From positions 1 to 34,070 of the forward strand of contig JAUUZA010000003.1 of NCBI GenBank assembly GCA_030590165.1: a stretch of DNA of 34,070 nt, written 5' to 3'. Shown in pieces: positions 2,585 to 34,070 of the stretch. Each line of letters opens with the position of its first letter. The stretch's first letter is position 1. The translations under genes and the position numbers were made by a program. Below the pieces are notes generated by a model, which was given only the letters and a program-made list of their open reading frames with translations, was not told the origin of the DNA and ran no database searches. This DNA is from Candidatus Altiarchaeota archaeon. GTDB taxonomy: Archaea > SpSt-1190.

Positions 2585-2605
2585 TCGTGGAATGGCAATA
2601 GCTAA

Positions 2606-3829: not shown

Positions 3830-3833
3830 TTTT

Positions 3834-4217: not shown

Positions 4218-4740
4218 TTTTTGTAGTTATACTCTGAACAAAATTCTTCAAACCTTTTTCAGTTACTGCCAAGTATCCGAATTGTTTTGGTTTGAGTTCA
4301 AAAATTATTTGGTCGAGTTGTTTTGAAGGATGTATTCCATCATTATACCATAACTCACGCGTTTGTAAGATAGGGATACGTACTGATACATCCGCTGAAG
4401 GGAGAGGTAAAGTTCCAAAAACTCCGCTTACTTCCAGTATGCTTTGTGTAAATCCCTCCATAGTATCTCCGGATGGATTGGCGAAAAGAACTTTTCTAAT
4501 TGCTTGAACTATATTTGCACTTAAGGGCCTCAATAAACCTTGTGAGTCATTTTTTATTAGGAAATTTGGTTTCTTGGTTGTTCCATGTTTTATTAAGATT
4601 TTTTGGCAGTTTTGCCTTATTAAAAATTCAATTGTTGTTTTTAGAGGTAGGTTATTGAAATAAAAATTAAAGTCTTTGATGGCGTATAAAATTTCTGGCC
4701 TTTCAGGAAAGGAGTATATATCAAAGCCAGGAATTTCCAT
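4198..4740 (-). CDS. hypothetical protein
   Basis: 180-aa ORF with ATG start, last gene of the minus-strand run; no family recognised. Confidence 0.6.
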   Translation of the reverse strand: MEIPGFDIYSFPERPEILYAIKDFNFYFNNLPLKTTIEFLIRQNCQKILIKHGTTKKPNFLIKNDSQGLLRPLSANIVQAIRKVLFANPSGDTMEGFTQSILEVSGVFGTLPLPSADVSVRIPILQTRELWYNDGIHPSKQLDQIIFELKPKQFGYLAVTEKGLKNFVQSITTKIKEVEP

Positions 4741-4767
4741 TCATCACTAGGTTGTATGGATTTAAGT

Positions 4768-5538: not shown

Positions 5539-5548
5539 TATGGAAGTG

Positions 5549-7426
5549 CTACTTTAATCTTATGGCATCCATATTATGTGGAATACGTGTAGACATATGG
5601 AGCTGACTTCGAATGGCCGAAGCAAATTCTGAAATTTTTCTTGGGTCTCCATGAACAGGTAAAATTACCCCCGGTCTTGGTTCCATAGTCCTCAAATAAC
5701 TCATTAATTGATTTCGGTCACTGTGAGAAGAAAATCCATTAGCAGTAATTACTTCCATGCGCAAAGGCATTCTTGCTCGATTTACTACAATTTCATGTGG
5801 TTTTCTTTGGACTTGACGTCCCAAAGTTCCTTCACCTTGATAGTTAACGAGTATCATTGCATTCTTTTCGTATGGTGCCAATCTTGAAAGGTAGAATACA
5901 CTTGGCCCACCAGTGAGCATACCAGATGTTGCAATTATAATACAGGATTCATTTTCAGAAACAATTTTTTCTCTTTCTTTTTGACCTGCTACCTTTCTGA
6001 AAATTGGACTGAGAAGGGGATTTTCTTCAGTGCTAAAAACTTGTTTTCTAATTTTTTTGTGTAGATATTCAGGGAAGGTAGTATAAATTGCGGTTGCGTC
6101 CCAAACAATTCCATCAACATAAACAGGAACATCTGGCAATTTTTTAGTTCTAATACAATCTTCAATCATTAGCATAACTTCTTGTGCACGTCCCGTTCCG
6201 AGAGTTGGGATTAAGACTTTTCCACCCTTTGCTAAGTTTGTTTTTATTGCAGTAATTAATTTTTCTTCTGAAACTTCAATGGGTTCTTGAATGTCATTAT
6301 TTCCACCATAGGTACTTTCAATTATGACAGCTTCAACCCTTGGGAATTTATTGTTTGCTGGTTCGTGAAGTCGAGTATGTGCAAACTTGATATCACCAGT
6401 ATAAACGAGGTTGTACAAACCTTCACCTATATGCATATGTAAAACTGAACTTCCTAAGATGTGGCCTGCATTGTACATAGTTAGTCTTACATCAGGCGTT
6501 ATGTTTGATACTTCTTCATATGGAAGCGTGATAGTATGCAAAACCATTTGTTCAATTTCTTTTGAAGAGTAAGGTGCTTTTCCTCCCTCCTTGAATGCTA
6601 TATTCACAAGGTCAAGTTGGAGTAATACGCTTAAAGGTAATGCAGGAGGCGTCATATAGATGGGTCCCTCATATCCATATTTGAATAAGAATGGCAAAAA
6701 TCCAGTGTGGTCGAGATGTGGGTGTGTTAATACTGTAGCGTCAAGTTGATGTATATCAAATTCAGGGGCGTCAAGAAGAGGATAGGCATTTTCAGTGCTT
6801 GCAACATTAACTCCACAGTCCATTAAAACTTTTGATTCATTGGTTTGGAGAAAAATTGCACTTCGTCCGACTTCTCGAGCTGCACCAAGAAAACTTGTTC
6901 TTATCCATTTTGTTGGTTTTCCGTCTTCATAAATTCGCATACCGGTTTTATTCAGAAATGCTGCTCTTGCCTTACTATTCTTACTTATTATTTTTCTAAT
7001 TGTGTTTATGATGTCTGATTTAAGTGGTGGTTCTCTTTGAATAATTGGCGTCCAAGAAATTTTTTTCTTCATTTCAAGAAGTTTTTTTGCACCACCGTTT
7101 AGAAGGTCACTTGGTCTTTTTGCTTCAATTATAACTTTTGAACCAAAGGTATCAAAGAATATGTCAGTGACATCAGCGTTTTTTCCAATTTTTCTGATTA
7201 TAGCTTCAGATTTTTCAATTGGCAGGAGTAAACTTCTATCAGCTCTTGCTTCAACTCTAAGTTTTAGTTCTTTTGCGACATCACGCAAAGTTTCGTGAGC
7301 CTTCATGAGAAAGTCCTGACTCTTTGTAAAGACCACAACACTGGCTCCTTCAAAACGAGTATCGCCAATTCTGGCCTTACTCGGAATAAGAGCTGACACC
7401 TTGTCAAGAATTTCTTGTCCACTCAC
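5549..7426 (-). CDS. fttA: aCPSF1/FttA beta-CASP ribonuclease with N-terminal KH domains (transcription termination factor)
   Basis: LGAAREVGRS, THPHLDH, AGHILGS, YTGD, ESTYGG, SSHSD and VHG motifs; 625 aa; conserved adjacency to proteasome beta. Confidence 0.96.
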   Translation of the reverse strand: MSGQEILDKVSALIPSKARIGDTRFEGASVVVFTKSQDFLMKAHETLRDVAKELKLRVEARADRSLLLPIEKSEAIIRKIGKNADVTDIFFDTFGSKVIIEAKRPSDLLNGGAKKLLEMKKKISWTPIIQREPPLKSDIINTIRKIISKNSKARAAFLNKTGMRIYEDGKPTKWIRTSFLGAAREVGRSAIFLQTNESKVLMDCGVNVASTENAYPLLDAPEFDIHQLDATVLTHPHLDHTGFLPFLFKYGYEGPIYMTPPALPLSVLLQLDLVNIAFKEGGKAPYSSKEIEQMVLHTITLPYEEVSNITPDVRLTMYNAGHILGSSVLHMHIGEGLYNLVYTGDIKFAHTRLHEPANNKFPRVEAVIIESTYGGNNDIQEPIEVSEEKLITAIKTNLAKGGKVLIPTLGTGRAQEVMLMIEDCIRTKKLPDVPVYVDGIVWDATAIYTTFPEYLHKKIRKQVFSTEENPLLSPIFRKVAGQKEREKIVSENESCIIIATSGMLTGGPSVFYLSRLAPYEKNAMILVNYQGEGTLGRQVQRKPHEIVVNRARMPLRMEVITANGFSSHSDRNQLMSYLRTMEPRPGVILPVHGDPRKISEFASAIRSQLHMSTRIPHNMDAIRLK

Positions 7427-7438
7427 TTTAACACCTGA

Positions 7439-8044
7439 TTATACTTCTCTAAAGCCGTTTTTGTCTATGACTGCAAGTTGGAGTACTTTTCCGCCTGTGT
7501 AAATATCTCTTTGAATTGCGGCGTTTAATGCTCTTTTTGCGAGGTCTATAGCCTCAGCTTCAGTCATATCTTTTTTGTATTGGCTTTCAAGAACACCCAC
7601 TGCGAGAGGGGAACCTGAACCAGTTGAGAAATAATCTTCACCAGTTCCTATCCCTCCATATGGGTCCATTGAAAATACTTGAGGTCCTTCTTTATCGTAA
7701 CCTCCAATTACTAATGCAGTAATTAATGGAAAATATCTGTTTGCGTGTAAAACATTGCTCAGCAAGGTAACCATACTTCTTGTTGTCATTGGTCCATTGC
7801 CCATTCCATACAATTTTGCTTCGACTCTCATGAGTCTTACTATGTATTGAAGGTCGGCAACTACTCCTGCTGTTGTAATTGCAATATTATTTGTAAGTTT
7901 ATGGAGTTTCTTTTCATACCTACTTTCAACATACGTTGAAGTACTTTGTGAGTCTGTAGCCAAGATTACTCCGTCTTTGAATTTAAATCCCAAGGTTGTT
8001 GTTCCTTTCTTAATTTTTGCTTCTATATCGATGCTATTATTCAT
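7439..8044 (-). CDS. psmB: proteasome subunit beta
   Basis: Propeptide then KKG/TTT N-terminal nucleophile, TGSGS and RDIYTG. The ATG at 8044 follows an SD-like GGTGA (ORF track starts at 8053). Confidence 0.96.
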   Translation of the reverse strand: MNNSIDIEAKIKKGTTTLGFKFKDGVILATDSQSTSTYVESRYEKKLHKLTNNIAITTAGVVADLQYIVRLMRVEAKLYGMGNGPMTTRSMVTLLSNVLHANRYFPLITALVIGGYDKEGPQVFSMDPYGGIGTGEDYFSTGSGSPLAVGVLESQYKKDMTEAEAIDLAKRALNAAIQRDIYTGGKVLQLAVIDKNGFREV

Positions 8045-8117
8045 TCGTATCACCAGAATTATCAGCTTATTTTGAGAAGTTTAAATATGTTTGTTTTGGT
8101 AAGGTTTTATGTCCAAA

Positions 8118-8540
8118 TCAAGAATGGAGTAGTTTTTCATAAGTTTGAATTCCGTTAAGTGTTAGTTCAAAAGCTTCATGCATTTTTTCCTTTTCTTTAA
8201 AGAGGTAGACGAAAGCAATATGATTTTTTAGGTTTAGTTTTTTGTAAAACTCAAAATTTTTATAATGTGATATAATTCCATAGAGGAAGTAAACTTCTTC
8301 ATTAATTTTTTCATGCAGTGAAACTTCTTTTGAGTTTCCTTCGGCAAGATTTAAAAGGCGTTTAAAAATGAGTCCTGAATAGTTTTTTCCTAAACTCTTG
8401 TCAAAATTTTCAATTATTTCAAAAGCGGCTTCCTGTGCCTTCGTTTTTTTCTTTGGACTGAAGGGGAGGTCGCTACTCCTTAAAACATTAGTGTGGCCTT
8501 TGATTAAGTTAGATTTAATAATTTGGTATGACTTATTCAT
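8118..8540 (-). CDS. hypothetical protein
   Basis: 140-aa ORF with ATG start and an upstream TATA-like sequence; no family recognised. Confidence 0.55.
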   Translation of the reverse strand: MNKSYQIIKSNLIKGHTNVLRSSDLPFSPKKKTKAQEAAFEIIENFDKSLGKNYSGLIFKRLLNLAEGNSKEVSLHEKINEEVYFLYGIISHYKNFEFYKKLNLKNHIAFVYLFKEKEKMHEAFELTLNGIQTYEKLLHS

Positions 8541-8576
8541 AATAAGTAATAGGGCGAAGAACTTAAAAACAAATCT

Positions 8577-9158
8577 TTACTTTTGAGCAACATGTACGGC
8601 TAAACTAATTATTTTTCCTCTAGTTCCTTCTACTATTGCTTCAACTGTTACTGGAATTTCTCTTTTCCAATAATTTGTTAATGGCCAATTTTTTAACACT
8701 ACAGTCCATATGGGGGCTTCATATTTGTCATCATAAATTACAAAGTTCATTGAATAAACTCTGAGGTGTTTGGCTTTGGTAAGTGCTTTCTGGACTCTTC
8801 CATCTTTTTCAATCTTGTTTAAGATTTCTTGGTCTGTCAAGAATTTAACTTGTTTTGCGAATTGTTCTTCATCACTCATGTCGCCCAAATCTTTAGATAG
8901 GTCAATTACAGTTTTTGAAAATTTTTCTTTTTCAAAACTGATATCAATCTGAGTTGGTTTGCCTTCATTAACAAGAAGAAAAGTGAATTCACCCATATCA
9001 ACATTTTCCTTTCGTTTGTCGCCTTCAGCAACACGATGCCAAGAGGCAGATAAACTCATTATAGCTCCCTCCCCCTTTGCAAAATCCAAGGCCTTTTTTG
9101 CCTCAATTATAGTCTTACTTAAAACCCCGTCAAACTTTTCGCTTAACATTTTTTCCAT
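8577..9158 (-). CDS. hypothetical protein, possible C-terminal PepSY-like motif
   Basis: 193 aa. PIWTVVL…EAIVEGTRGKII resembles the PepSY W.V…idA.tGki pattern; overlaps the HIT gene by 29 nt. Confidence 0.65.
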   Translation of the reverse strand: MEKMLSEKFDGVLSKTIIEAKKALDFAKGEGAIMSLSASWHRVAEGDKRKENVDMGEFTFLLVNEGKPTQIDISFEKEKFSKTVIDLSKDLGDMSDEEQFAKQVKFLTDQEILNKIEKDGRVQKALTKAKHLRVYSMNFVIYDDKYEAPIWTVVLKNWPLTNYWKREIPVTVEAIVEGTRGKIISLAVHVAQK

Positions 9159-16392: not shown

Positions 16393-17187
16393 TTAGTGTT
16401 GTCCCCAATAATGATTGAAATCTTTTTTAGCATCAATTGATTTTTTCTTATTTAATTCTTCAAAAAGTTCTTTCATTATTATTTCTTGAGGGTTTCGATT
16501 TTTTCTAAGAAATACATCATCATAAGATACCCTATTTATCTTGAATGGTTTTTTTCCGTTATAATTAGAAGGTCTTCCTGTAACATATTTTGAACCACGA
16601 TATTTCAGTTCTGTTGAATTTCCAATTTCTACAAAATTTACCCCTTTTTCAGAAAGGTAATTTATTAATTGATACATTTCTTCTCCAATTAATAAAGCTT
16701 CATCAATATCTTTGGTGTAAATTGTGAAAGCCTTTCCTTTTTGAGTTCCACTTAAACCATTCCATCCTTCTTCATTTTTGACATGTTTGAAGAAGGCACG
16801 TTTACTTATGAGATATGATGTGATTAATTCCATAAATAATTCATCATAATCTTCAGGAGCACTTATGTGAATTTTGATTCCTTGTTCAGGTAAATTTAAA
16901 TTTTGAAAATCATATTGTTTCCATAAATGATTTTTAGAAATATCATAATATCTATTTTCGGGGGATGCTTTTACTGGAAATTTTTTTATATTGTCTCTTA
17001 AATTATGTGAATTTGTAATTTTTTGATAAAGTTTGGGGTTTTCTGTTTTCTCAGCTAAATAAATATACCTTAAGATTTCATCAAAAGTATATTCATCTTG
17101 AGAACCTTTGATAGTGCCAAGTTTAGTTAAGGAATTTATGTTGTCCACAACATCTTGAAAAGAGTGGGTTGGGTTTTTGAATGGCAT
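16393..17187 (-). CDS. stand-alone phosphothreonine lyase-like protein (LanKC/RamC N-terminal, OspF/SpvC-like motifs)
   Basis: LPEQGIKIHISA…AFFKH…QKGKAFTIYT matches the QGWKIHVSA…FK…GKFITIYP pattern of class III/IV lanthipeptide lyase domains. Confidence 0.7.
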   Translation of the reverse strand: MPFKNPTHSFQDVVDNINSLTKLGTIKGSQDEYTFDEILRYIYLAEKTENPKLYQKITNSHNLRDNIKKFPVKASPENRYYDISKNHLWKQYDFQNLNLPEQGIKIHISAPEDYDELFMELITSYLISKRAFFKHVKNEEGWNGLSGTQKGKAFTIYTKDIDEALLIGEEMYQLINYLSEKGVNFVEIGNSTELKYRGSKYVTGRPSNYNGKKPFKINRVSYDDVFLRKNRNPQEIIMKELFEELNKKKSIDAKKDFNHYWGQH

Positions 17188-18485: not shown

Positions 18486-19379
18486 GTGCTTACGCTTTCA
18501 CTTGGTTTGTTGTTGTTGATAATTGGCGCTGAATTAGTTGCTAATGGTGTTAAGCAAGTCTCAAAACTTTTTGGTTTTTTTGGCACTTCTTTTGGGTTTG
18601 TGCTTGTCGCAATTTCTTCTTCTTTACCTGGGCTTTCAATGAGTTTATTTTCCGCATTCGAAACTCCTGAATTGATTATGTATTTAGTTGTTACAAATTT
18701 TATTTTTCAGATGACTTTTTTCTTGGGTATGATTGGTGCGGTTAAAAAAACAATTTGTTTTGTTAATCTTGGGGTTAATTTCAAATATTTATTATTGATG
18801 AGTATTATTGTTTTCATTGCATCATTGGATGGGATTGTAGATGGATTTGAAGGAAGTGTTATACTCATTATATATTTTTCAAGATTGGTGTTAATGAAAG
18901 TAAGGCGTCAAACCTTATTTGAAAATCCCTTGAGATTTTTGTCAGATAGTTTGGGTGGATTGATGATGTTGCTTGCTGGAGGTATAATGATATTGATTGG
19001 AACGCGTGGTGCAATTGAAGGTGCCATTTCATTTGTTGAACCTTTTACACCGCTCATTGGTGTTGTTGGAATATTACTTGCTGTGATTACTCTTTTCCCT
19101 ACTTTTTCTTTTTCATTGATAGCCTCTTCTAAAGGTAAGTGTAATGAGGCTATATCTAATTTAATCGAATCCAGTTTTTTTATGTTAGCAGTTCCAATTG
19201 GATTTGCATCATTATTATTTCCAATTCCAGTTAACTCACAGTTTTTTGCTTTTTGTATGGGGGTGTCATTTTTGGCTTTACTTCTTTTTCATAATGGGTG
19301 TTTCTCGAAGTGGAAGGCGTTTATTATTGGGTCGGCTGGGATACCTTTTGTTTTGTTTATGAAATCTATTTTAAGTTAA
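18486..19379 (+). CDS. Ca2+/cation antiporter (CaCA, YrbG/NCX-like) homolog with degenerate alpha-repeats
   Basis: About 10 TM in two repeats; GAELV and LDGIVDGFEG. Alpha-repeats read SSSLPG and ITLFPT instead of GTSLPE. Confidence 0.8.
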   Translation: MLTLSLGLLLLIIGAELVANGVKQVSKLFGFFGTSFGFVLVAISSSLPGLSMSLFSAFETPELIMYLVVTNFIFQMTFFLGMIGAVKKTICFVNLGVNFKYLLLMSIIVFIASLDGIVDGFEGSVILIIYFSRLVLMKVRRQTLFENPLRFLSDSLGGLMMLLAGGIMILIGTRGAIEGAISFVEPFTPLIGVVGILLAVITLFPTFSFSLIASSKGKCNEAISNLIESSFFMLAVPIGFASLLFPIPVNSQFFAFCMGVSFLALLLFHNGCFSKWKAFIIGSAGIPFVLFMKSILS

Positions 19380-19396
19380 AATGAGCATAATTCATA

Positions 19397-19414
19397 TGCC
19401 CCAATGGCTCAGTG
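19397..19414 (+). repeat. exact 18-bp duplicate of the tRNA-Thr 5' end
   Basis: TGCCCCAATGGCTCAGTG at 19397-19414 and 19473-19490. Confidence 0.95.
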
Positions 19415-19472
19415 CAACCGAAACATCGGTTGACGCTGTAAGATGTCTCGCTTCGCTCGAGCATCTGGAGTG
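19415..19472. repeat. 58-nt double-hairpin insert between the direct repeats
   Basis: CAACCGA-AACA-TCGGTTG and AGATG-T-CTCG-CTTCGCT-CGAG-CATCT. Confidence 0.75.
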
Positions 19473-19473
19473 T

Positions 19474-19545
19474 GCCCCAATGGCTCAGTGGTAGAGCGAC
19501 TGCTTCGTAAGCAGTAGGTCCCGAGTTCGACTCTCGGTTGGGGCT
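19474..19545 (+). tRNA. tRNA-Thr(CGT)
   Basis: GCCCCAA/TTGGGGC, ACTGC-TTCGTAA-GCAGT, AGTTCGACT. Confidence 0.95.
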
Positions 19546-19556
19546 TAAAGCAAAGA

Positions 19557-19829
19557 TTATTGTTTTTTGTCCCAGAATGCGTGTGCATCATCTTCCATTT
19601 TATCAAGTCGGGTATAGTAGTCAGGGAACTCGAGAAGATGAGCTAATGCAATTTTTCCAGTTAAAAGTGGGTCGTCATTTGTTACATTAGTTATTGGTGT
19701 TTCAGTTCCGTGTTCAAGTTCAACATCCATCCCACGTCTAAATTGTTCAACATCAAATTTGTCCCATTTAATTTCAAGTTTTTCCCCAATATTTTTAGCG
19801 TCTTCAATTGTAAATGTTTGTTTTGTCAT
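19557..19829 (-). CDS. DUF5661 family protein
   Basis: FDVEQFRRGMDVELEHG…TNDDPLLTGKIALAHLLEFPDYYTRL; ATG at 19829 or 19835. Confidence 0.85.
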   Translation of the reverse strand: MTKQTFTIEDAKNIGEKLEIKWDKFDVEQFRRGMDVELEHGTETPITNVTNDDPLLTGKIALAHLLEFPDYYTRLDKMEDDAHAFWDKKQ

Positions 19830-19926
19830 AAACATCTAAGTTCTTTGAGTTTAAAGAAATTAGTTTTGAGGGAAAAAAATAAATTTTGATTACGAATTTA
19901 TGAGTGTAATTTAGAGATTTAATAAT

Positions 19927-19978
19927 GAGAAACTGTTTTGTAAGAAGAAGGTTTCGAGTTTGACTCTTGGTTGGGGCT
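19927..19978 (+). pseudogene. decayed copy of the 3' 52 nt of tRNA-Thr (att-like scar / tRNA pseudogene)
   Basis: Ungapped alignment to 19494-19545 gives 42/52 identity by manual count; ends TTGGGGCT. Confidence 0.85.
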
Positions 19979-20071
19979 AAATTTTTTTCTCAAAAATTTA
20001 TAGGACGCCCCACTAAACACCTTGACCAAAAATTATACTGGTTCACCCTCGGTTCACCAGCATTCCAATAT

Positions 20072-20111
20072 AAATAAAAAAAAGAAAAAACTACCTTAAA
20101 AAGGTAGTTTT
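20072..20111 (-). terminator. hairpin plus U-tract terminator
   Basis: AAAACTACCTT (20087-20097) / AAGGTAGTTTT (20101-20111) spans the peptide stop codon and is followed on the minus strand by a long T-run. Confidence 0.75.
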
Positions 20112-20227
20112 CCTTCTTTATACAACCACCAGAGGCCTCCTCCTACAATTGCTAATACTACTACAACGATTCCTCCTATAAATAGTGGGCTTGTTGTAAA
20201 TGTTGATATTATTTCTGCTATTGCCAT
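20096..20227 (-). CDS. unannotated 43-aa hydrophobic peptide (single-pass microprotein or RiPP precursor candidate)
   Basis: MAIAEIISTFTTSPLFIGGIVVVVLAIVGGGLWWLYKEGKLPF*. Strong SD GGAGGTGA upstream; starts 20 nt after the radical SAM stop; below the ORF-track size cutoff. Confidence 0.8.
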   Translation of the reverse strand: MAIAEIISTFTTSPLFIGGIVVVVLAIVGGGLWWLYKEGKLPF

Positions 20228-20247
20228 TTTTCATTCACCTCCTTTTT

Positions 20248-21672
20248 TTATTTTTTTTCATATTCCTTTTTCCAATAAGGATCAGTAATTCTTTTCAGTT
20301 CTTCGTCAAATTCTATTAAAGTTTTATGATATCCTTCATCTTTCATTGCTTCTTCAGCAGATTTATCTTGAGGTAAAACTTTACTTGCTATTGCTATGTC
20401 CATGAATGTTTGGTGGTGATCTCTGATAAAACAAGGTCTTAGCATATTCCCGAGTTTTCCATTCTGATTAAAATATTTTTTTTGCCATTCTCTACCCTTA
20501 ACAAAAAAATCTGAAAACAAAGCATCTGAAATTTTTTTGCCTTCAGAAAACAATTGTTTAACATTATGTTTGTAATAGGGAATAAAAACACAAGGCATTA
20601 TATTTCCATTCCAATCTATGTAGAAATAACCTCCAGATTTTCCACAAGACATACAGCCCTTTGAAAGTATTGCACTATTCCAGAAATCAGCAACAAACCA
20701 TTGTTTTTCACTAAGAATATATTTCCATTTTTTGAATAATTTAAATCGTTGTTCAGGACTAATCATAAGTTCTGTCGTAAATTTTCTCCCTATTGGCATG
20801 TATTGAAATATCCACATATAAGTGGCTCCTAATTTTTCAAAATAGTGGTCATAAAATTTATCTGTTAGTAACACATCAATGTTCTTTTTTGTTGCTGTTA
20901 CAGATACGCCGAATAGAACACCTTCTTCTCTTAAATTTTTCATTGCTCTTAAAATTCCTTTGTAAACTCCTTTACCCCTCCTATAATCAGTCTCATTCTC
21001 AAAACCCTCTACGGATATTGAAGGAGTTATGTTTCCCAGTTCTGCAATTTCTTTAGCAATATCGGGAGTAATCAAAGTTCCATTGGTATATATCAAGAAA
21101 AAACTATCTTTCCATTTTCTTGGTAAGTCCAATATGGATTTTCCCTCGCTCTTATACATCAAGGGTTCTCCTCCCGAAATCACAAAAAATCTCATACCCA
21201 TTTCATCGTGTAATTCGGTCATTGTTTTATCAAGAATGGACCAATCAAGTGTTTCAGCCGTTGTTGAAGTTGAAGAGGCATAACAACCTATGCAGTTAAG
21301 ATTACATTTTTTTGTTGGACTTATTGTAACAAAACCAGGGGGTGTCATATCGTATTTTTCTTTGAATGTCAATATCGCTTCTTTTTTATGATCATCTTGA
21401 AAAAATCCCTGCTCCACTAAAGTTTCAACAAGTCTCTTTGCATATTTTTTTGAAATAATACCTCTATCGAGATTTTTAAGAACCGAAAGATACATAGCCC
21501 TCAAACCATTAAATTTATCTATCTGGGCATTTCTTGAAAACAGAGGAATATCTTTTTCAACCATATTTTTATAAAGTGTTTTCTCAAATTTCTTGGATAA
21601 CACTTTCCTCATCAATTTATTACCTACAACAACCTTTCCAAAGTTTGAAATCATTTTTTTTTCTAAATTCAT
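20248..21672 (-). CDS. radical SAM protein with C-terminal SPASM/twitch-like domain
   Basis: CNLNCIGC, ISGGEP, YTNGT, GCMSCG…GNIMPCVF and LRPC. Confidence 0.93.
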   Translation of the reverse strand: MNLEKKMISNFGKVVVGNKLMRKVLSKKFEKTLYKNMVEKDIPLFSRNAQIDKFNGLRAMYLSVLKNLDRGIISKKYAKRLVETLVEQGFFQDDHKKEAILTFKEKYDMTPPGFVTISPTKKCNLNCIGCYASSTSTTAETLDWSILDKTMTELHDEMGMRFFVISGGEPLMYKSEGKSILDLPRKWKDSFFLIYTNGTLITPDIAKEIAELGNITPSISVEGFENETDYRRGKGVYKGILRAMKNLREEGVLFGVSVTATKKNIDVLLTDKFYDHYFEKLGATYMWIFQYMPIGRKFTTELMISPEQRFKLFKKWKYILSEKQWFVADFWNSAILSKGCMSCGKSGGYFYIDWNGNIMPCVFIPYYKHNVKQLFSEGKKISDALFSDFFVKGREWQKKYFNQNGKLGNMLRPCFIRDHHQTFMDIAIASKVLPQDKSAEEAMKDEGYHKTLIEFDEELKRITDPYWKKEYEKK

Positions 21673-21693
21673 ATTCTTACATCCCTTAACTCA

Positions 21694-21711
21694 TTTCAGT
21701 TTTTTGTGAAA
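21694..21711. promoter_or_regulatory. putative operator (imperfect copy)
   Basis: TTTCAGT-TTTT-TGTGAAA, 16/18 identical to the palindrome at 22232-22249; lies upstream of the radical SAM start. Confidence 0.7.
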
Positions 21712-21733
21712 TTGTAAAACAAAAAAAAACAAA

Positions 21734-22228
21734 TTATCCCAAAATCCTCCCAATTTTATCAATTGAAATCTTTTTCAGAAAAATTGTTTTTTCAAACCAA
21801 CTAAGGTAAGTTTCCAACTGCTTATAGTCTTTTATTAAATTTGATATTTTTGGATTATTATTAAACTTTTTAAGATGTTCTAAATCTTTAATTAGGGGTT
21901 GAATATCATTTTGTAAAAATCTTTTAATTATTACATTGAAAGCCTCAACAAAAGATAATACTTGTGTGTATAATTTTTTTTTGTTTTCTTTTCTGACAAG
22001 TTTAATCATATTTAAATTCTCAAGAAGTTTTAAACTTGGGCTGACTAAACTTAAACTGTATCCAGTTTTCTTTGCTATTTCTTTCTGAGAAAGGGGGGGC
22101 TCCGATAATAAAAGTGTTGCCCAGACTCTACCGGCCGGTCCACCTAAACCCCATCGCTTTGCGAGGTTTCCCGTTTCATCAATGAAGTTTTTCTCTTTTT
22201 TGATTATATTGTTTTTCATTTTTTTCAC
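21734..22228 (-). CDS. GbsR/MarR-family winged-helix transcriptional regulator
   Basis: FIDETGNLAKRWGL…GRVWATLLLSEPPLSQKEIAKKTGYSLSLVSPSLKLL; start GTG 22228 or ATG 22219. Confidence 0.88.
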   Translation of the reverse strand: MKKMKNNIIKKEKNFIDETGNLAKRWGLGGPAGRVWATLLLSEPPLSQKEIAKKTGYSLSLVSPSLKLLENLNMIKLVRKENKKKLYTQVLSFVEAFNVIIKRFLQNDIQPLIKDLEHLKKFNNNPKISNLIKDYKQLETYLSWFEKTIFLKKISIDKIGRILG

Positions 22229-22231
22229 AAC

Positions 22232-22249
22232 TTTCAGTTTTTACTGAAA
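22232..22249. promoter_or_regulatory. putative autoregulatory operator
   Basis: Perfect palindrome TTTCAGT-TTTT-ACTGAAA between a minus-strand TATA (TTTTAAAT, 22265-22272) and the regulator start. Confidence 0.75.
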
Positions 22250-22413
22250 ATAGGACACAACCATATTTAAAAGGTTTTACTTTTTTGAATTGAATCAAGT
22301 TTCACAGAATTCTTTGTTTTTCGTTTACAATAATTGATACAAAAACGAAAGTTTGAATTTATATCTGTTGCTATGTCATTACTTTCATCAAAAAAGTTCG
22401 AAGCCTAAAATTC

Positions 22414-23052
22414 TTACTTCGTTTTAAAATATAAATAAGCCCCACCATAACAACATTTCCTTTTAAAATTCATTTTTCTTAAGTTTATTTCTTTTTTAGA
22501 AGTATCCTGATCTTGATATGTATAAAAAATTAATTTACCGCCTTTTTCTAGGGATTGCCACAATTTATTATAATTTTTTTCATTAAAAAAAAGTGCAGCT
22601 AACATAATATATTTGAATTTTGCATTAAATGGAAGATCTTCTCCGTTACGATATAAAAATTTTTTGAAGTTTCCTTTGAACTTTGGAAAAATTATTTCTT
22701 TTGCATTTCTAATTTTTGTAGCATCAAAATCTATTCCAAAGGGTTCTAATTTGTATTCTGAATTTATCACAATAAATTTTAATGAGAGCCCATTTGAACT
22801 TCCAATATCAAGAATTTTTCCGGGTGAATCAATTAGTGAAATAAGCTCACTAAACTTTAATGGAAAGGTGAAGGAAGAACCACCAACTCCATTTTCTTTT
22901 ATGAGATGTTTTTTATCAATTATTAAATCGATAACTTCAATCATCCAAGTTTTAAGATAATTTATGAGTCTAGGAGTAAATTCTTGGTGTAATCCATGTT
23001 TTAATCCTTGAGCCTCAAAAATTGGTTCATTCATAACAAGCCAAGGGTGCAC
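22414..23052 (-). CDS. class I SAM-dependent methyltransferase-like protein
   Basis: ILDIGSSNG, FGIDFD and LEKGGKLIF. Confidence 0.75.
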   Translation of the reverse strand: MHPWLVMNEPIFEAQGLKHGLHQEFTPRLINYLKTWMIEVIDLIIDKKHLIKENGVGGSSFTFPLKFSELISLIDSPGKILDIGSSNGLSLKFIVINSEYKLEPFGIDFDATKIRNAKEIIFPKFKGNFKKFLYRNGEDLPFNAKFKYIMLAALFFNEKNYNKLWQSLEKGGKLIFYTYQDQDTSKKEINLRKMNFKRKCCYGGAYLYFKTK

Positions 23053-23073: not shown

Positions 23074-23313
23074 TTAAAGCATTAAAGGTTTTATCTTTTT
23101 ACGAATATTAGATTTCTTGTTTAAACAAGAATGAGATAGAAAACACGATTTACAATCTTTGGTTTGGAGAGGACGAAAGATTAATTTTCCTTTTTGAGAA
23201 AGTAAGACAAGTGCTTCTCTTACAACTTCTACAGATGCGTCAAGTTCCCTCGCCAGTTCTGTTAATGAAGAAATTTGGTTTTCATTTACCTTTTCAATTA
23301 GTTGAAATAACAT
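23074..23313 (-). CDS. feoC: FeoC-like winged-helix protein with Cys cluster
   Basis: True start ATG 23313 (MLFQLIEK…), 8 nt after the feoB stop. SLTELARELDASVEVVREAL and CKSCFLSHSC. Confidence 0.8.
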   Translation of the reverse strand: MLFQLIEKVNENQISSLTELARELDASVEVVREALVLLSQKGKLIFRPLQTKDCKSCFLSHSCLNKKSNIRKKIKPLML

Positions 23314-23321
23314 AATATCAC

Positions 23322-25256
23322 TTAAATTAACAAACTCCCAATCACTTTTACAGTTAGAGCCATGGCATAAGCAAGGATGAATGAATATAAGACTGAAAAT
23401 CCTGTCCATTTCCACGAACCAGTTTCCTTACGTATAATTCCTAATACTGCTAGGCAAGGAGTATAAATTAAGACAAAGACCATGAAAGCGTATGCCGTGA
23501 CGGTACTCATTGATTGAGTAAGTAATGTGCTTAGATTTGCCTCACCAACACCATATAATGTTCCAAAAGTTCCAACTACCATGTCCTTGGCGAGGAAGCC
23601 TGCAATAAGAGCAACATTAAATTTCCAATCGAAACCGAGAGGTTTGAAGATTGGTTCAAGTAATTTTCCAATTTGAGCTGAGTATGATTGTTCTAAACTT
23701 ACTCCCCAAGGATGTGTGTTGAGAAACCAAATCAACATTATTCCCATAAGTAATAGAGTTGATGCCTTCTTTAGAAATTCTGCAACTTGTTGCCAAGTTT
23801 CTAAAAGAACATTTTGAATTTTAGGTAATTGATAATCTGGAAGTTCAAGGACGAAAGGGTCGGGCTCACCTTTGAATATTGTCCTTCGGAAGACGAAGGC
23901 CATACCAAATGCGAGAAGGGCACCGAGTAGATAAAGTGACAAAATTACTAGACCTTCCGAATTTGGAAAGAAAGCACCAGCAAATAGCATATAAACAGGA
24001 AGTCTTGCACTGCATGAAATAAGTGGGTTTATGAGTATAGTTATTAAACGATCTTTTTTATTTTCAATACTTCTGGCTGTCATAATTGCAGGTACATTAC
24101 AACCAAGACCCATAATCATAGGTATAAAGGAACCGCCATGAAGTCCAACCTTTGCCATGAATTTATCCATGAAAAAAGCGGCTCGAGGAAGATAACCACT
24201 ACCTTCAAGCCAAGATATGGCAAAAAACATGAAGGCAATTGGTGGAACAAAGATGAGTACAAAACCTAGACCTCCAATAATTCCTTCTATGATGAGTGAA
24301 TTAAACCAAGGAGACGTGATGTATGTTCCTAACCATGAACCAAAATTAGCAAAGAAGGCATCGATTAAGTCCATAAAAGGCGCTGATAAAGTAAAAGAAA
24401 AGTGGAAGGTTGCCCAGAGTGCTAATAAGAATAAAGGAAGGGCGAGAAAACGATTCAAAACTATGGAATCAATTTTTTCTGAAATTGTTGATTTCAAATA
24501 TCCCTTATTAAAAACTTGAGATATAATATTTGAGATTTGATTATACCTTGCATCAGGAACTAGTAGTTCTTTATGTTTTGGAATGTCTTCAGAAACTTTA
24601 TCTAAAACTTTTTGTGCCGCAGATGAAGGTTTTGAACCATTAATCAAGACTTCATTTTCAAGAAGGTAAAATATTTCTTGGCGCTGTGTTTTTTTTGGAA
24701 GAACCTTTGTCAAACTTTTTGTATATTTTTCAAGTGAAGGATATTCTAACAATTTTGGTTTTTTTGGATTTTTAATATTTGTAATAATTTCATCTTTGAG
24801 TTTTTCAATTCCAGTATTGTTAGTAGCTATTGTTTCAATTACAGGAACACCAAGAATTTCCGAAAGTTTTTTGATGTCGATGTTCATATGTTTAGATTTA
24901 GCGAGGTCCATTTTGTTAAGCACAAGAATTAAGGGAATTTCTAATTCAATTAATTGTAATGTTAAATTAAGGTTTCGCAAGAGATTTGATGAATCAAGAA
25001 TGTCAATAACCAAATCAGGTTTATTCTCAATAATGAAATTGCGAGAAATTCTTGAATCTATTGCTTCGGATGACAAGGCATATGTCCCTGGTAAATCAAC
25101 AACCTTAATTTGTAGGTCATTGTGAATAAGTTTTCCTTCCTTTTTTTCTATAGTGACTCCCGGCCAGTTAGCAACACGTTGTTTGAGACCAGTAAGCAAA
25201 TTGAATATTACTGTCTTACCGACATTAGGATTTCCAATGACTGCAACAGTTTTCAT
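23322..25256 (-). CDS. feoB: ferrous iron transporter FeoB
   Basis: GNPNVGKT, NWPGVT, DLPGTY, NKMD; gate motifs GLGCNVPA, SCSARLP and YTPC. Confidence 0.98.
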   Translation of the reverse strand: MKTVAVIGNPNVGKTVIFNLLTGLKQRVANWPGVTIEKKEGKLIHNDLQIKVVDLPGTYALSSEAIDSRISRNFIIENKPDLVIDILDSSNLLRNLNLTLQLIELEIPLILVLNKMDLAKSKHMNIDIKKLSEILGVPVIETIATNNTGIEKLKDEIITNIKNPKKPKLLEYPSLEKYTKSLTKVLPKKTQRQEIFYLLENEVLINGSKPSSAAQKVLDKVSEDIPKHKELLVPDARYNQISNIISQVFNKGYLKSTISEKIDSIVLNRFLALPLFLLALWATFHFSFTLSAPFMDLIDAFFANFGSWLGTYITSPWFNSLIIEGIIGGLGFVLIFVPPIAFMFFAISWLEGSGYLPRAAFFMDKFMAKVGLHGGSFIPMIMGLGCNVPAIMTARSIENKKDRLITILINPLISCSARLPVYMLFAGAFFPNSEGLVILSLYLLGALLAFGMAFVFRRTIFKGEPDPFVLELPDYQLPKIQNVLLETWQQVAEFLKKASTLLLMGIMLIWFLNTHPWGVSLEQSYSAQIGKLLEPIFKPLGFDWKFNVALIAGFLAKDMVVGTFGTLYGVGEANLSTLLTQSMSTVTAYAFMVFVLIYTPCLAVLGIIRKETGSWKWTGFSVLYSFILAYAMALTVKVIGSLLI

Positions 25257-27234: not shown

Positions 27235-28188
27235 ATGTTAAGTGTGGGTGATGAAAAGGGTCCATACGACATGATGGACTATGTTTTACGATTAGGTATG
27301 AAGTGTAATTTTAATTGTTCTTTTTGTAATATTATGAATCATGAAAATATTCCTGAGAAGACTTTTGAGGAGGTGAAGCGTGAGGTAGAAAATTTGAATC
27401 CACATAAACTTGGGACTATTTCAATTAGTGGTGGTGAACCTACACTATCTCCTTTTTTAGGAGACTTAATTGAATATCTTTTTAATAGAGGTTTCCGTGT
27501 TAATTTACAAACTAATGCTGTTTTGATTACACCGCAGAAAGCTAAGGATTTGAAGAAAAAGGGGCTTAGTATGGTTTTTGTAAATTTTCCCTCTCACTTA
27601 CCTGAAACATATGCTCGCCTAACTGGAACTAATTTAAAAATGTTTGAAAAAGGAGTGGAAGGTATTTTGAATCTTCTTTCTGAAGACATAACTGTAATTT
27701 TGAATATTGTAATTAATCAAGAAAATTTTTCCAAACTTAATAATTATTTACAATATGTTTCAGATAAATTTTCAAAAATTAAAGAAATAAATTTTTCAGT
27801 AATACAACCTCACGGAAATGCGGCAATCAATTCACATCTTATTCCAGATTATCGTGACCTCAAACCTTTTTTTAAGTCAGCCTTCAAAACTGCTCAAAAA
27901 TTAGGTTTGAAAATTATTAATCCTTATTGTGGGCTTCCACTTTGTATGTTGTGGGACTTGTTACCTCTTGAGAATAATTCAGAGTACCTTACGGGTATGG
28001 CTGTACGTAGAACTCAGAAAGTCCCTTCCTTGATTAAAATTATTTATGAAAATAAAATTCAACCAGACAGTTGTTACGCTTGTTGTCTGAAAAATATTTG
28101 TATGGGTATTTGGAAAGCGTATTATAAAATAAAAGGTGATATTGTTGAGCCCCCTTATAGAGCGCTTAGATTTTGGCCAAAAGACTAA
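27235..28188 (+). CDS. radical SAM protein, HxsC-like C-terminal Cys cluster
   Basis: CNFNCSFC, ISGGEPT, LQTNA, YCGLPLC and CYACCLKNICMG. Confidence 0.9.
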   Translation: MLSVGDEKGPYDMMDYVLRLGMKCNFNCSFCNIMNHENIPEKTFEEVKREVENLNPHKLGTISISGGEPTLSPFLGDLIEYLFNRGFRVNLQTNAVLITPQKAKDLKKKGLSMVFVNFPSHLPETYARLTGTNLKMFEKGVEGILNLLSEDITVILNIVINQENFSKLNNYLQYVSDKFSKIKEINFSVIQPHGNAAINSHLIPDYRDLKPFFKSAFKTAQKLGLKIINPYCGLPLCMLWDLLPLENNSEYLTGMAVRRTQKVPSLIKIIYENKIQPDSCYACCLKNICMGIWKAYYKIKGDIVEPPYRALRFWPKD

Positions 28189-28813
28189 GTTAATTAAAGT
28201 TCGATTAAACGACTCTAAACTTGAGTCTAAGATTAGAGATAAAACTCCTGATGAAAGTCAAATAATTTTTTATGGGGAAGAGTTTACTCAACACAATAAT
28301 TTTATTGAGTTGATTAATCTTACTAGACAATTGGATTACAAAATAATTGAATTGGTAACTAATGGTAAGGCTTTTTCCTCTCCAAAATTTGTAGTGAATT
28401 CGGTGTTTGCTGGAGTTACTGATATCCTGGTTAAGTTTTATTCAAGTTCTCCTGAAATCCACAATGTTTTGTCGGGTGAAGATTCTTGGTCTGATGTAGT
28501 TAAAGGATTAAAAAATATAATTAAACTTAGACAAAAAGTTTCAGTTTTTTTTAAGCCAGTTCTTTCAGTTGGAATATATCTCTCAGAAAAAAATCAAGAC
28601 ACTTTAGTATCTACATTGGAATTTTTGGAATCGTTGGAAGTGCAAGAAATTTTTATTGTAAAAGCCGGTGAGGTAGATGACCAATTGGTTAGGGACGCAC
28701 TTGTAGATAGAAAAGTTCTTACATTTACATTGGGTTTTGATACCCTTAAAGATTATCAGAAATTTAAGGAAGACGAAACGAATAGAGTGATGAAACTTTC
28801 AAGTTCAATTTAA
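28136..28813 (+). CDS. radical SAM-like partial barrel lacking CxxxCxxC
   Basis: IIFYGEEFT (GGEPT-like), LVTNGKAFS and EIHNVLSGEDSWSDVVKGLKN; no Cys; start uncertain. Confidence 0.65.
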   Translation: MILLSPLIERLDFGQKTKLIKVRLNDSKLESKIRDKTPDESQIIFYGEEFTQHNNFIELINLTRQLDYKIIELVTNGKAFSSPKFVVNSVFAGVTDILVKFYSSSPEIHNVLSGEDSWSDVVKGLKNIIKLRQKVSVFFKPVLSVGIYLSEKNQDTLVSTLEFLESLEVQEIFIVKAGEVDDQLVRDALVDRKVLTFTLGFDTLKDYQKFKEDETNRVMKLSSSI

Positions 28814-30721: not shown

Positions 30722-31906
30722 ATGGTAAGTTTATTGAGTGTGTCTCAACGAGAAGAAAATAGTAAGAAACTTACTTATTTGAATCAATTTGTAAATACAT
30801 TAAATTCAGAGTATTTTGATATTTTACAGAAGATTCCGTTTTCAAGTATAATAATAGAGGATGGCTCTGATTGTTATCCACAATGTAAAATTTGTTGTTA
30901 TCGAGATGGTTCAAAGAAAAAAACACAATCTTCAAAAAAACTTTTTGAAACTATAATGAAACAAATTCCAGAGACAGAAATTGAAAGTCTTTTTCTTACT
31001 GATGGCGAACCCTTTCAAAACAAAAAGCGATTGGAAAAAATAGTTAAAATTACTAAAAAACTTCCACTTGATATTTACTCGAGTGGATTTTTTGCAACAA
31101 ATGTTAAAGCCGCAACTGAAGTTCTAACTGGAATTAAGGAGGCCGGATTTACAACAAATGCAGTTCCAAGACGTTCTTTCAAAGGTCAAGACCATAATTT
31201 ATTATCTATTTCTGCTGATGAGTATCACTTAAATTCATTTTCAACCGCTCGAAATTTTGTTAAAGCTTTTGATAAAGTTTTTGATGAAAAGGTAAGTATT
31301 GAAGATTTATTTAGTGGTGAATTTTATACACCACATCATCTAATGATTACAACTACATATGATGGTGAGCAAAAAAAACCACATGAGCTTAATAGTATTC
31401 GGGATGAATTAATTGAACCACTTAAAAAATCATTTGATGGTAAGTATATTACTTTTGGAAACCCAGGTGAAGGATATTTAATTTTAGGGGACCTTGTTGT
31501 ACTCTTACGTTCTCGAGTTTTGAGGCCGTGGGGAAAAGCAAAAAATATTATGGAAGAAAAGCCTAGGCGAGAGTTTAATCCAAAAGATATTGAATGTCCA
31601 ATAAATTTATTACCTCAACTTTATCTCACTTCAACTGGTGACCTTTATCACGCCATTGATTATGTATGTTTAGCTCCTGGAAGAAAAATGGGAAATATTT
31701 ATGAGGGGCCCTTGAATGAATTAATTTCAGACTTCAAAAAAACTCCGATTTTTAAAATGGAAAGACAGGGAGGAGTAAAGGGAGTTTATTCTTGGTTGTA
31801 TAAAAATGGAGTAAGACTTTCAGGGACTATTGATTGTGATGTGTGTAAACAAATTTACGGTGATGCTACTTTCATAAATGATTTGAACAAAAAACTGGAG
31901 AATTAA
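30722..31906 (+). CDS. divergent radical SAM protein
   Basis: CYPQCKIC, LFLTDGEPF, YSSGFFA, LSISADEYH, MGNIYEGPL and CDVC. Confidence 0.82.
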   Translation: MVSLLSVSQREENSKKLTYLNQFVNTLNSEYFDILQKIPFSSIIIEDGSDCYPQCKICCYRDGSKKKTQSSKKLFETIMKQIPETEIESLFLTDGEPFQNKKRLEKIVKITKKLPLDIYSSGFFATNVKAATEVLTGIKEAGFTTNAVPRRSFKGQDHNLLSISADEYHLNSFSTARNFVKAFDKVFDEKVSIEDLFSGEFYTPHHLMITTTYDGEQKKPHELNSIRDELIEPLKKSFDGKYITFGNPGEGYLILGDLVVLLRSRVLRPWGKAKNIMEEKPRREFNPKDIECPINLLPQLYLTSTGDLYHAIDYVCLAPGRKMGNIYEGPLNELISDFKKTPIFKMERQGGVKGVYSWLYKNGVRLSGTIDCDVCKQIYGDATFINDLNKKLEN

Positions 31907-33128: not shown

Positions 33129-34070
33129 TTAAGGAATTATCTCACACGAGTTAAATTCATGAAAATCGAAGTCGTTTTGGTCTATTACTTGGTTTTCAAT
33201 TAATTTTTTAATTTTAGGTAATCTCTCTTGCAACGCAAGAATCAGGTTTTGAATAGTTTTTTTGACCTGTAGATATCCCTCATCTCCCCACAATTTCGTT
33301 TTGTTTGCAAATAGACAGCGACCGCCACATTGTTCAAAAATATCACAGCTTGTGCAGGGTTCTCCAACTTCAATTTTTTTTAGATTATTTGGATTTGAGT
33401 TTGAGATGTTTCCAACATAAAATTCTTTCATCCCACTCATTGCAACACAGGGGGAAATATTTCCATCTGTTAGTATGGCATATTGAGTAAGTCCGGCACC
33501 ACACCTAAGTTTTGACTTGCGATTTTCAAGTAAAGATTTTGTAATTCCTATGAATGGATAAATTTTCCACACTATTCCTTTTTTCATTTCTTCAATCCAC
33601 AAGTCAATAAGTTCTTGAATATTTTGATTATATTTTTTACTCCACTCTTCAAAGTTTCTAAATTTGAGGTCTTCCCAAAACATAGCATTTAATTGCCAAT
33701 GAAAGGAGTCAAACAAATTTAATTTAATGAGATGAAGAACTTCTTCTTTAATATTAACAGGTTCCATTACAGTCATTCGTGCTATAATTTCTCCCTTGAA
33801 TTTTTCTTTCTTTAACCACTTGGCACTTTCAATAACTTTGTTATAAACATTTTTTCCTCTAAAATAATCTGTTGTTTCCTTTTTTCCATCTATTGATATT
33901 AAGATGGTGTCAAGTTTGTGGATGTCGTTACCTAACTTTTTAAGGTGAAGTCCATTTGTTTGAAGAATAAATTTTGCATTTATTTTCTTCAAAATTTCAT
34001 GTATAAGTTTAAGTCTAAGTAAGGGTTCTCCCCCATAAAATATTAACCAAGGGTTGGGGTCTTTTTCAAT
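33129..34070 (-). CDS. radical SAM/SPASM putative peptide maturase (TIGR04084/AF0577-like), 5'-truncated
   Basis: Frame is open to the window edge: IFYGGEPLL, LQTNG, FHWQLN, LRCGAG, CTSC…CGGRCL and terminal CEIIP. Confidence 0.88.
   Translation of the reverse strand: MEKDPNPWLIFYGGEPLLRLKLIHEILKKINAKFILQTNGLHLKKLGNDIHKLDTILISIDGKKETTDYFRGKNVYNKVIESAKWLKKEKFKGEIIARMTVMEPVNIKEEVLHLIKLNLFDSFHWQLNAMFWEDLKFRNFEEWSKKYNQNIQELIDLWIEEMKKGIVWKIYPFIGITKSLLENRKSKLRCGAGLTQYAILTDGNISPCVAMSGMKEFYVGNISNSNPNNLKKIEVGEPCTSCDIFEQCGGRCLFANKTKLWGDEGYLQVKKTIQNLILALQERLPKIKKLIENQVIDQNDFDFHEFNSCEIIP

Follow-up and report, generated by a model that had tools for sequence, protein, structure and literature searches.

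We analysed a 34,070-nucleotide stretch of DNA, hereafter the window, from a Candidatus Altiarchaeota archaeon (contig JAUUZA010000003.1 of assembly GCA_030590165.1, which is 724 kb in size and 87.6% complete). Our interest was a compact unit that a first-pass annotation had described as three co-oriented genes, for a regulator, a radical S-adenosylmethionine (SAM) enzyme, and a hydrophobic peptide. The arrangement is as described. All three genes are on the minus strand and encode, in order, a regulator (here called REG), a 474-residue radical SAM enzyme, and a 43-residue protein (here called PEP). The exact PEP sequence reported earlier is present, with a Shine-Dalgarno site, a gap of 20 nt between the enzyme stop codon and the PEP start codon (20228-20247), and a hairpin followed by a run of T residues. 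Similarly, neither a transporter nor a protease is found in the unit, as judged from the list of open reading frames and Pfam matches of the window proteins. All features are listed in Table 1. Note that REG is 164 residues long if read from a GTG codon and 161 if read from the ATG at 22219; alignment with relatives indicates that the ATG is the likely start. Base composition over the unit is unremarkable (GC content 0.29-0.32, compared with about 0.32 in the window) and an Rfam scan of positions 19300-22500 detected nothing beyond tRNA. The sequencing runs that contain the window DNA are cold-seep and sediment metagenomes, and no RNA run is among those listed.

Table 1. Features of the three-gene unit and its downstream flank, with positions numbered along the window.
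Feature	Position	Strand	Basis
TATA-like box TTTTAAATA, upstream of the regulator gene	22264..22272	-	read from sequence
Operator-like palindrome O1 TTTCAGTAAAAACTGAAA, about 13 nt 5' of the regulator's likely ATG	22232..22249	-	sequence
Regulator REG, winged-helix, Mj223/GbsR branch of the MarR family	21734..22228	-	Pfam HTH_24, phmmer to 1KU9
Operator-like palindrome O2 TTTCACAAAAAACTGAAA, between REG stop codon and enzyme start	21694..21711	-	sequence repeat
Radical SAM enzyme, 474 aa	20248..21672	-	Pfam, alignments, AlphaFold2 model, fold matches
Shine-Dalgarno site GGAGGTGA of the small gene, 7 nt 5' of ATG	20235..20242	-	sequence
Small gene PEP, 43-aa single-pass membrane protein	20096..20227	-	relatives, genomic copies, dN/dS
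Terminator-like hairpin and T-run CTTTTTTTT; hairpin itself 20085-20113	20075..20113	-	folding, conservation
tRNA-Thr(CGT)	19474-19545		tRNA call
Degenerate copy of the tRNA-Thr 3' part, about 115 nt past the unit's terminator	19927..19981	+	repeat search

PEP is short, has no match in Pfam or NCBIfam, and is absent beside the nearest relative of the enzyme. Such properties would suit a frame that is open by chance in the enzyme gene's 3' untranslated region. Comparative evidence makes this explanation scarcely credible. A HMMER search of 1.84 billion representative proteins gave nine matches to PEP at E <= 0.001. Six are proteins of 40-46 residues, with 44-65% identity (E = 1e-8 to 4e-4), and the other three are long proteins aligned over hydrophobic stretches. 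Four intact genomic copies were found, all of exactly 43 codons, and pairwise ratios of nonsynonymous to synonymous substitution (dN/dS) are between 0.08 and 0.26, indicating purifying selection. In addition, the motif GAGGTGA is at the same spacing 5' of all four intact genes; within the window, a motif of the Shine-Dalgarno kind precedes just 3 of 37 open reading frames, compared with 2% of random positions. The small relatives, the dN/dS values, the conserved Shine-Dalgarno site, and the terminator hairpin described below lead us to conclude, on sequence grounds, that PEP is a real gene. It appears to belong to a newly recognised family of membrane proteins, 40-46 residues in length. The family pattern is ..P.FIGG.., then a hydrophobic helix with two GG pairs, then WWL.KEGKLPF. 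Conservation covers the full length of PEP, a predicted transmembrane helix whose inner end is aromatic and basic. The predicted topology places the N-terminus outside, and the conserved KEGKLPF tail inside, the cell.

PEP is rare. Among 17 genomes of the window's phylum only the window itself has the gene, with two further matches (E = 0.002-0.006) inside long frames. In the phylum to which the Woesearchaeota metagenome-assembled genome (MAG) of locus L033 belongs, 2 of 401 genomes gave a match, as did 5 of 301 genomes from one order of that phylum, where four matches are strong and one is weak. PEP was absent from the viral contigs searched and was not found in five DPANN-type genomes that carry other enzymes of the same clade (clade A, below). 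One further copy, in genome G511 (loci L175/L180), lies between REG and the enzyme gene; its codon 7 is an in-frame TGA and its FIGG motif is degraded. Either this copy is a pseudogene or TGA is read unusually here. For two different family members, P0244 and P0247, the source is in each case a JGI contig 3383 nt long, possibly a single contig that carries two copies in tandem.

The hairpin that closes the unit has 13 pairs and a folding energy of -17.8 kcal/mol (z = -4.8), and none of 200 shuffled sequences was as stable. It overlaps the final codons of PEP and is kept in loci L171, L172, and L174. Between the window and L172 or L174, a double change preserves one pair, which is A-U in the window and G-C in both of the others. 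Note that a terminator scan of the region returned two hits, both to this hairpin, compared with 1.6 +/- 1.4 in shuffled sequences, and so not above chance. Our assignment of the hairpin as a terminator is therefore based on its position and conservation, not on the scan count.

REG matches the Pfam family HTH_24 (23.9 bits against a cut-off of 21.9) and aligns, over residues 12-125, with Mj223 (PDB 1KU9; phmmer E = 1.6e-7). The NCBIfam model CudC scored 23 bits against a cut-off of 218. Relatives of REG, with 53-65% identity, head related cassettes. A repeat search located the same 18-bp palindrome both upstream of REG (O1) and between REG and the enzyme gene (O2). The conserved motif, TTTCAnnAAAAAnTGAAA, flanks REG and does not occur elsewhere in six genomes. 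More specifically, two copies of the pattern TTTCANNAAAAANTGAAA are found in the window, also when one mismatch is permitted, and two in the whole 724-kb assembly, while a reversed-pattern control gave no match. Five other genomes, of 1.1-2.1 Mb, have nine matches in total, every one of them flanking REG, and the control again gave none. Among 172 collected loci, the pattern was present in seven (three copies of the window region, L101, L152, L171, and L172), in each case flanking REG or preceding the next gene. The O1 18-mer is identical, and at the same place, in L101, and the position of the O2 motif is kept in L101, L152, L171, L172, and L200-L202. Alignments with L101 identify the palindromes and the TATA-like box, a putative promoter element, as the best-conserved intergenic blocks; the spacer is not conserved.

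O1 is about 28 nt downstream of the TATA-like box. This is close to the spacing at which archaeal transcription is expected to start. Hence, the position of O1 would fit autorepression by REG. The palindrome is most likely an operator at REG's own promoter, to which we infer that REG binds. Two 18-bp palindromes would also suit binding by a dimer, as for regulators of the Mj223/GbsR type. Excerpts of Ronzheimer et al. 2018 (PMC6207618) name Mj223 as the template structure for the GbsR branch within the MarR regulators; like REG, it has a winged helix and a C-terminal helical part. The difference is in the likely targets, which are lipid-related for REG and osmoprotectant genes for regulators of the GbsR type.

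The enzyme had been labelled radical SAM/SPASM, and only the first half of this label stands. Pfam detects Radical_SAM and Fer4_12 in the protein and does not detect SPASM. Across 19 diverse family members, no cysteines other than C123/C127/C130 and C340/C361/C414 are invariant, and the same six remain after more distant subfamilies are added to the alignment. The three that follow the CxxxCxxC motif would fit one auxiliary cluster, of the twitch type; the enzyme lacks the seven-cysteine SPASM motif that accommodates two. An AlphaFold2 model (predicted local distance difference test score 91, predicted TM-score 0.91) has five N-terminal helices (residues 2-107), a barrel, and a C-terminal domain. 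The layout is thus an all-helical segment (residues 1-107), a radical SAM core (about 110-330), and a twitch-like C-terminal part. The N-terminal domain of the model contains helices only, with no strands and no sheet resembling the recognition element (RRE) of ribosomally synthesized and post-translationally modified peptide (RiPP) systems; PqqD was likewise not matched by a Pfam scan of the enzyme and window proteins. Matches to known folds span residues 82-474 and leave the N-terminal domain unexplained. Scores for the NCBIfam models all fall well short of the cut-offs, led by NirJ2 and AhbD (77 bits against cut-offs of 500). The best sequence match to a solved structure, in a search of the PDB, is SkfB (E = 8e-10).

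Relatives of the enzyme accounted for 6312 of 8000 scored candidates in a protein database search. Identity is 49-62% to proteins named from Dehalococcoides, Patescibacteria, Bacteroidales, Chitinivibrionales, and Sedimentisphaerales. In our genome collection there are 584 species loci of the family, including examples from Woesearchaeota, Pacearchaeota, and a Methanosarcinales MAG, where the genomes are tiny (0.5-0.8 Mb, compared with 724 kb here). The family is, then, a very widespread and strongly conserved one of anaerobes. A tree places its members in one superfamily, consisting of clades A, B, and D and a basal grade, C, well apart from other archaeal radical SAM proteins. Note that the tree was made by a quick method, using 57 rows hand-picked from about 200 available sequences. 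The window enzyme falls in clade A with L101, P0002, and G465. Proteins from Dehalococcoides, Patescibacteria, and the Methanosarcinales MAG are next to this group, and other DPANN members are elsewhere in clade A. The closest relatives are in L101, from a metagenome (77% identity), and G465 (73.6%). The homologue P0015, which stood in for the window enzyme in the Atlas, has unnamed radical SAM clusters as its neighbours. In L105/L106 (2329-5985), a contig of Bacteroidales type, one TetR gene is followed by a clade A enzyme and then by a clade B paralogue, 32-35% identical. Members of the two subfamilies can therefore act side by side.

The first-pass annotation raised the possibility that PEP is the substrate of the enzyme. 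In such a RiPP system, the radical SAM protein would be a maturase that epimerises PEP, or cross-links Trp and Lys in its WWLYKEGK segment. PEP begins 20 nt 3' of the enzyme gene here, and in G193 and G465 it directly follows a gene for a related radical SAM protein. Among solved structures, the nearest folds are those of RiPP or protein maturases (anSME, SkfB, SuiB, CteB, and ChlB), and there is weak similarity to the NCBIfam models for the peptide maturases WgkB (70 bits) and StsB (66 bits), for which scores are nonetheless far under the cut-offs of 625-650 bits. The distribution of PEP argues otherwise. From the genome loci of the enzyme family we took the best 80; 76 of these have downstream sequence, of which we examined 450 nt. 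A small open reading frame similar to PEP was present at 0 of 76. Eight have some hydrophobic frame of 23-91 codons in this interval, none of which is PEP-like, and tblastn with PEP against the collected loci found only PEP itself (next best E = 0.22). Even L101, with its 77% identical enzyme, keeps the regulator and enzyme and lacks PEP; a secreted CARDB-type protein follows instead. Conversely, G303 has REG, PEP, and a patatin gene, with no enzyme homologue found at E <= 1e-20, although this genome may be incomplete. In G511 the small gene is upstream of the enzyme gene and carries the in-frame TGA.

Properties of the proteins themselves point the same way. Conserved auxiliary cysteines number only three, the modelled N-terminal domain consists of helices and shows no RRE sheet, and the unit has no protease or exporter. 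PEP is conserved along its entire length as a membrane helix. When the enzyme and PEP were each supplied as alignments, prediction of a complex scored 0.02 against a mark of 0.32, which speaks neither for nor against their interaction. The absence of PEP across the wide range of the family indicates that the enzyme family works without it. We conclude that the substrate proposal fails its main comparative test, and that PEP is very improbable as a RiPP precursor. More generally, a hydrophobic small open reading frame 3' of a radical SAM gene need not encode one.

A better guide to PEP is the company it keeps. In the window, REG is followed by a clade A enzyme, PEP, and the terminator. The cassette of G465 has REG, a clade A enzyme, and PEP, followed by genes for a patatin-like lipase, a CrtC/lipocalin-like protein, and a CARDB protein. 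In G193, REG and a clade C enzyme (36% identical) precede PEP, patatin, and a 145-residue membrane protein. The cassette of G303 consists of REG, PEP, patatin, and a CARDB-like protein. G511 has REG, the broken PEP copy, a clade C enzyme, an ABC1 kinase, a phasin-like protein, patatin, the 145-residue protein, and an MMPL protein. REG-headed cassettes that lack PEP are found in L101/G162 (enzyme and CARDB protein), in G080 (a 716-residue protein, a CrtC-like protein, a phasin-like protein, two MMPL proteins, and a CARDB protein), and in G528 and G494 (enzymes of clade C). In G479, with REG and a clade C enzyme, only 115 nt of contig remain after the enzyme gene, and PEP could lie beyond. Hence, the steadiest neighbours of PEP are REG and, in the 301-genome order, patatin (4 of 4), not the enzyme. 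PEP is an optional member of a variable cassette headed by REG.

Since REG is the most constant neighbour, PEP could instead be a sensor partner of the regulator that reports on the state of the membrane and controls REG, for example by holding it there through the conserved cytoplasmic tail. REG and PEP share a unit in the window, G193, G303, G465, and G511, with PEP directly 3' of REG in G303 and G511, and G519 has a weaker pair (REG, 41% identity; PEP, E = 5.8e-5). Nevertheless, cassettes with REG and the same operators lack PEP in L101/G162 and G080, and REG relatives occur in 14 of the 301 genomes of the order, compared with just 5 for PEP. We consider a role in sensing improbable. The first-pass annotation had also offered an alternative, that PEP is a membrane anchor for a lipid-acting enzyme. 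This fits better than the substrate proposal and survives as a lead: PEP is a predicted single-pass membrane protein, and the recurring neighbours of the enzyme are lipid-handling genes.

We counted the genes around 103 loci with a full-length relative of the enzyme (at least 38% identity; loci not de-replicated). A TetR regulator is found at 24, mostly directly upstream on the same strand. Other recurrent neighbours are an ABC1/UbiB kinase (10 loci), patatin (9), a PhaR-like protein (7), and PgpA, a B12 radical SAM protein, and a LolA-like protein (5 each). Locus L111 has a transporter of the RND/MMPL kind, judged by N-terminal sequence alone. In the archaeal cassettes, the corresponding set is patatin, ABC1, phasin, MMPL, CrtC/lipocalin, and CARDB. 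The recurrent neighbours of the enzyme family are thus lipid-handling genes. Judging from this context, and from the distribution of the family, the enzyme most likely alters membrane lipids.

The substrate might instead be some other hydrophobic or small molecule, such as a quinone-type or storage compound, with the lipid genes forming an envelope or stress regulon. ABC1/UbiB and PhaR/phasin neighbours also fit quinone or storage-granule biology, and no curated family claims the enzyme, given the low NirJ2 and AhbD scores noted above. Patatin, PgpA, MMPL, LolA-like, and lipocalin-like neighbours, on the other hand, point to acyl or polar lipids. Occurrence of the family in tiny genomes also speaks against a substrate other than lipid, as does agreement with the published distribution of Mss, a membrane-spanning lipid synthase, so far as given in excerpts of PMC13159169 and PMC11868695. 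Hence, we regard a non-lipid substrate as unlikely.

The known system closest in outline is Mss, verified in Thermotoga maritima (Tmari_0825) and Thermoanaerobacter ethanolicus (WP_129545148.1; Sahonero-Canavesi et al. 2022, PMC13159169). In the available portions of that paper, Mss is likewise a radical SAM enzyme of anaerobes, spread by gene transfer, with homologues in candidate phyla, FCB, Spirochaetes, Chloroflexi, deltaproteobacteria, DPANN, and Asgard archaea; those of PMC11868695 add Woesearchaeia and Patescibacteria. The window family has the same spread, and both Mss-type traits, the CxxxCxxC motif and occurrence in anaerobes including DPANN archaea, are present. The operational definition of Mss in PMC13159169 asks for identity of 30% or more, with E <= 1e-50, relative to a verified Mss. 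The superfamily of the window enzyme has at least four clades, any of which might hold the verified proteins. As a proxy for these, a clade B protein labelled Fervidobacterium matched with 32% identity (E = 3e-64). No Thermotoga or Thermoanaerobacter name was among the 120 matches listed, either for the clade B profile or for the Fervidobacterium-labelled query. An Mss-like function is, then, suggested by gene context and distribution.

Two further lipid enzymes share the build of the window protein. Tes/GDGT-MAS (PDB 7TOL and 7TOM) has an auxiliary-cluster domain after its radical SAM core, as here, and excerpts of PMC13459092 propose that the lipid-tail chemistry uses an auxiliary cluster. 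The fold match to GDGT-MAS has Z = 17.8 and a root-mean-square deviation of 3.2 Å over 241 residues. However, phmmer gave no sequence match to these PDB entries at E <= 0.001 and, unlike Tes/GDGT-MAS, the window enzyme has three auxiliary cysteines. The second enzyme, Gms (Garcia et al. 2024, PMC11214058), has an N-terminal extension of about 100 residues before a SPASM/twitch radical SAM region, and the accessible sections of that paper propose that the extension forms a lipid pocket. Those sections also describe Gms as a close homologue of AhbD (E = 7e-79). The window enzyme has the extension but not the close AhbD homology (77 bits on TIGR04545, cut-off 500). By comparison, the SPASM/twitch maturases anSME (4K36-4K39), SkfB (6EFN), SuiB (5V1Q-5V1T), and CteB (5WGG) give the best folds (Z = 24.5-20.8 over about 290-320 residues). 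They differ in having seven auxiliary cysteines, rather than three, and a conserved precursor, which is not found beside the window family; the extra N-terminal domain of the window enzyme is modelled as all-helical, unlike an RRE.

The cassette is foreign to the host phylum. Like PEP, the enzyme is found in 1 of 17 genomes, and among 41 relative genomes one other has a true enzyme homologue (46% identity). Since the cassette closest to that of the window is in another phylum (G465), its transfer into the window genome is well supported. The window holds a shortened version of a cassette of the G465 type. The first-pass annotation had inferred acquisition from a scar of tRNA-Thr beside the unit. 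Acquisition is upheld by the distribution of the genes; the scar does not bracket the unit. The tRNA-Thr 3' repeat at 19927-19981 is 55 nt long and 80% identical, with a 23-nt core that has two mismatches and was matched as well by none of 100 shuffles. Yet the repeat encloses only 19546-19926 and hence does not tell us how the unit arrived. The flanking 297-residue gene, sought in nine family genomes as a marker of the insertion edges, was not found at E <= 1e-10.

The interval between tRNA-Thr and its degenerate copy contains a single gene (19557-19835, minus strand), encoding a 92-residue DUF5661 protein; this gene might be what is left of a small integrated element. The tRNA-Thr 5' end also has an exact copy of 18 nt (19397-19414, matching 19473-19490), located 76 nt upstream of the tRNA gene. 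Partial copies are thus present on both sides, and neither ARAGORN nor Rfam calls a tRNA in the stretch between.

Together, our data suggest, with moderate confidence, that the unit is a horizontally acquired and self-regulated cassette for modifying membrane lipids. In the proposed mechanism, a dimer of REG would bind the two palindromes, O1 overlapping the predicted start region of the REG promoter and O2 lying ahead of the enzyme gene. This would hold the unit off until a ligand releases REG. The soluble enzyme, which has a helical N-terminal domain and a site for one auxiliary cluster, would then abstract hydrogen from inert lipid tails. PEP would act at the membrane as a tether or modulator of the soluble lipid enzymes, and not as a target of the radical SAM enzyme. 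Of the close versions, the fullest is in G465, whose phylum includes a Woesearchaeota MAG; the window retains just the first three genes.

Several observations weigh against a lipid-modifying cassette. The best fold matches, anSME, SkfB, and SuiB (Z = 24.5-24.2), modify peptides or proteins, and GDGT-MAS, the lipid enzyme, scores below them. In three of the four intact copies (window, G193, and G465), PEP is directly 3' of a radical SAM gene, a position like that of a precursor, and G303, which has PEP with no enzyme homologue detected, may be an incomplete genome. Each lipid-related neighbour is found only in a minority of loci (5-10 of 103). Finally, the nearest relatives of the Fervidobacterium-labelled proxy carry names of Clostridia type, not Thermotoga.

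How ultra-small archaea and bacteria that cannot make lipids get and adapt their membranes is an open question. The locus offers a compact unit in this regard, with a regulator and its defined 18-bp operator, an enzyme, and a new membrane protein family of 40-46 residues, joined in relatives by a lipase and carriers. Homologues of Mss in DPANN genomes have been noted before, and lipid remodelling suggested, in excerpts of 10.1101/2022.04.21.487849 and PMC11868695 that mention no genetic unit. A literature search gave no account combining DPANN, patatin, and radical SAM, and the available parts of the literature on Mss (PMC13159169 and PMC11868695), or on radical SAM proteins and lipids in Woesearchaeota, describe no such regulator, operator, or small membrane protein. 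As a doubtful but broader idea, REG-headed cassettes might be a toolkit with which host-dependent archaea of the DPANN type scavenge and remodel lipids. Under a ligand-sensing repressor of Mj223 type, a patatin-like lipase and lipid carriers (a lipocalin-like protein and MMPL) would obtain lipids from the host, an Mss-like enzyme would join the borrowed tails into membrane-spanning lipids, and PEP would dock or activate these soluble enzymes at the membrane, the whole module moving between archaeal phyla. Note that the window's own assembly gave no match to patatin or CrtC.

Elsewhere, the window encodes a termination factor of the FttA type and gives a weak match, below cut-off, to the C-terminal domain of topoisomerase VI subunit B. 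A 264-residue protein encoded between tRNA genes (16393-17187, minus strand) has a RamC_N-like domain (E = 2e-11). A FeoC-like frame (23074-23415, minus strand), as called from its first start codon, overlaps by about 90 nt the 3' end of a frame (23322-25256, minus strand) identified as FeoB from its sequence in the list of open reading frames. The true FeoC start is probably further downstream than called. The 724-kb assembly contains 16 matches to Radical_SAM, of which eight are on contig C44 of G000 (about 40-9030) and five are in the window. Besides the enzyme, the window places are 27301-27750, 28253-28624, 30869-31153, and 33732-34043. This is a very high density of Radical_SAM matches for so small a genome.

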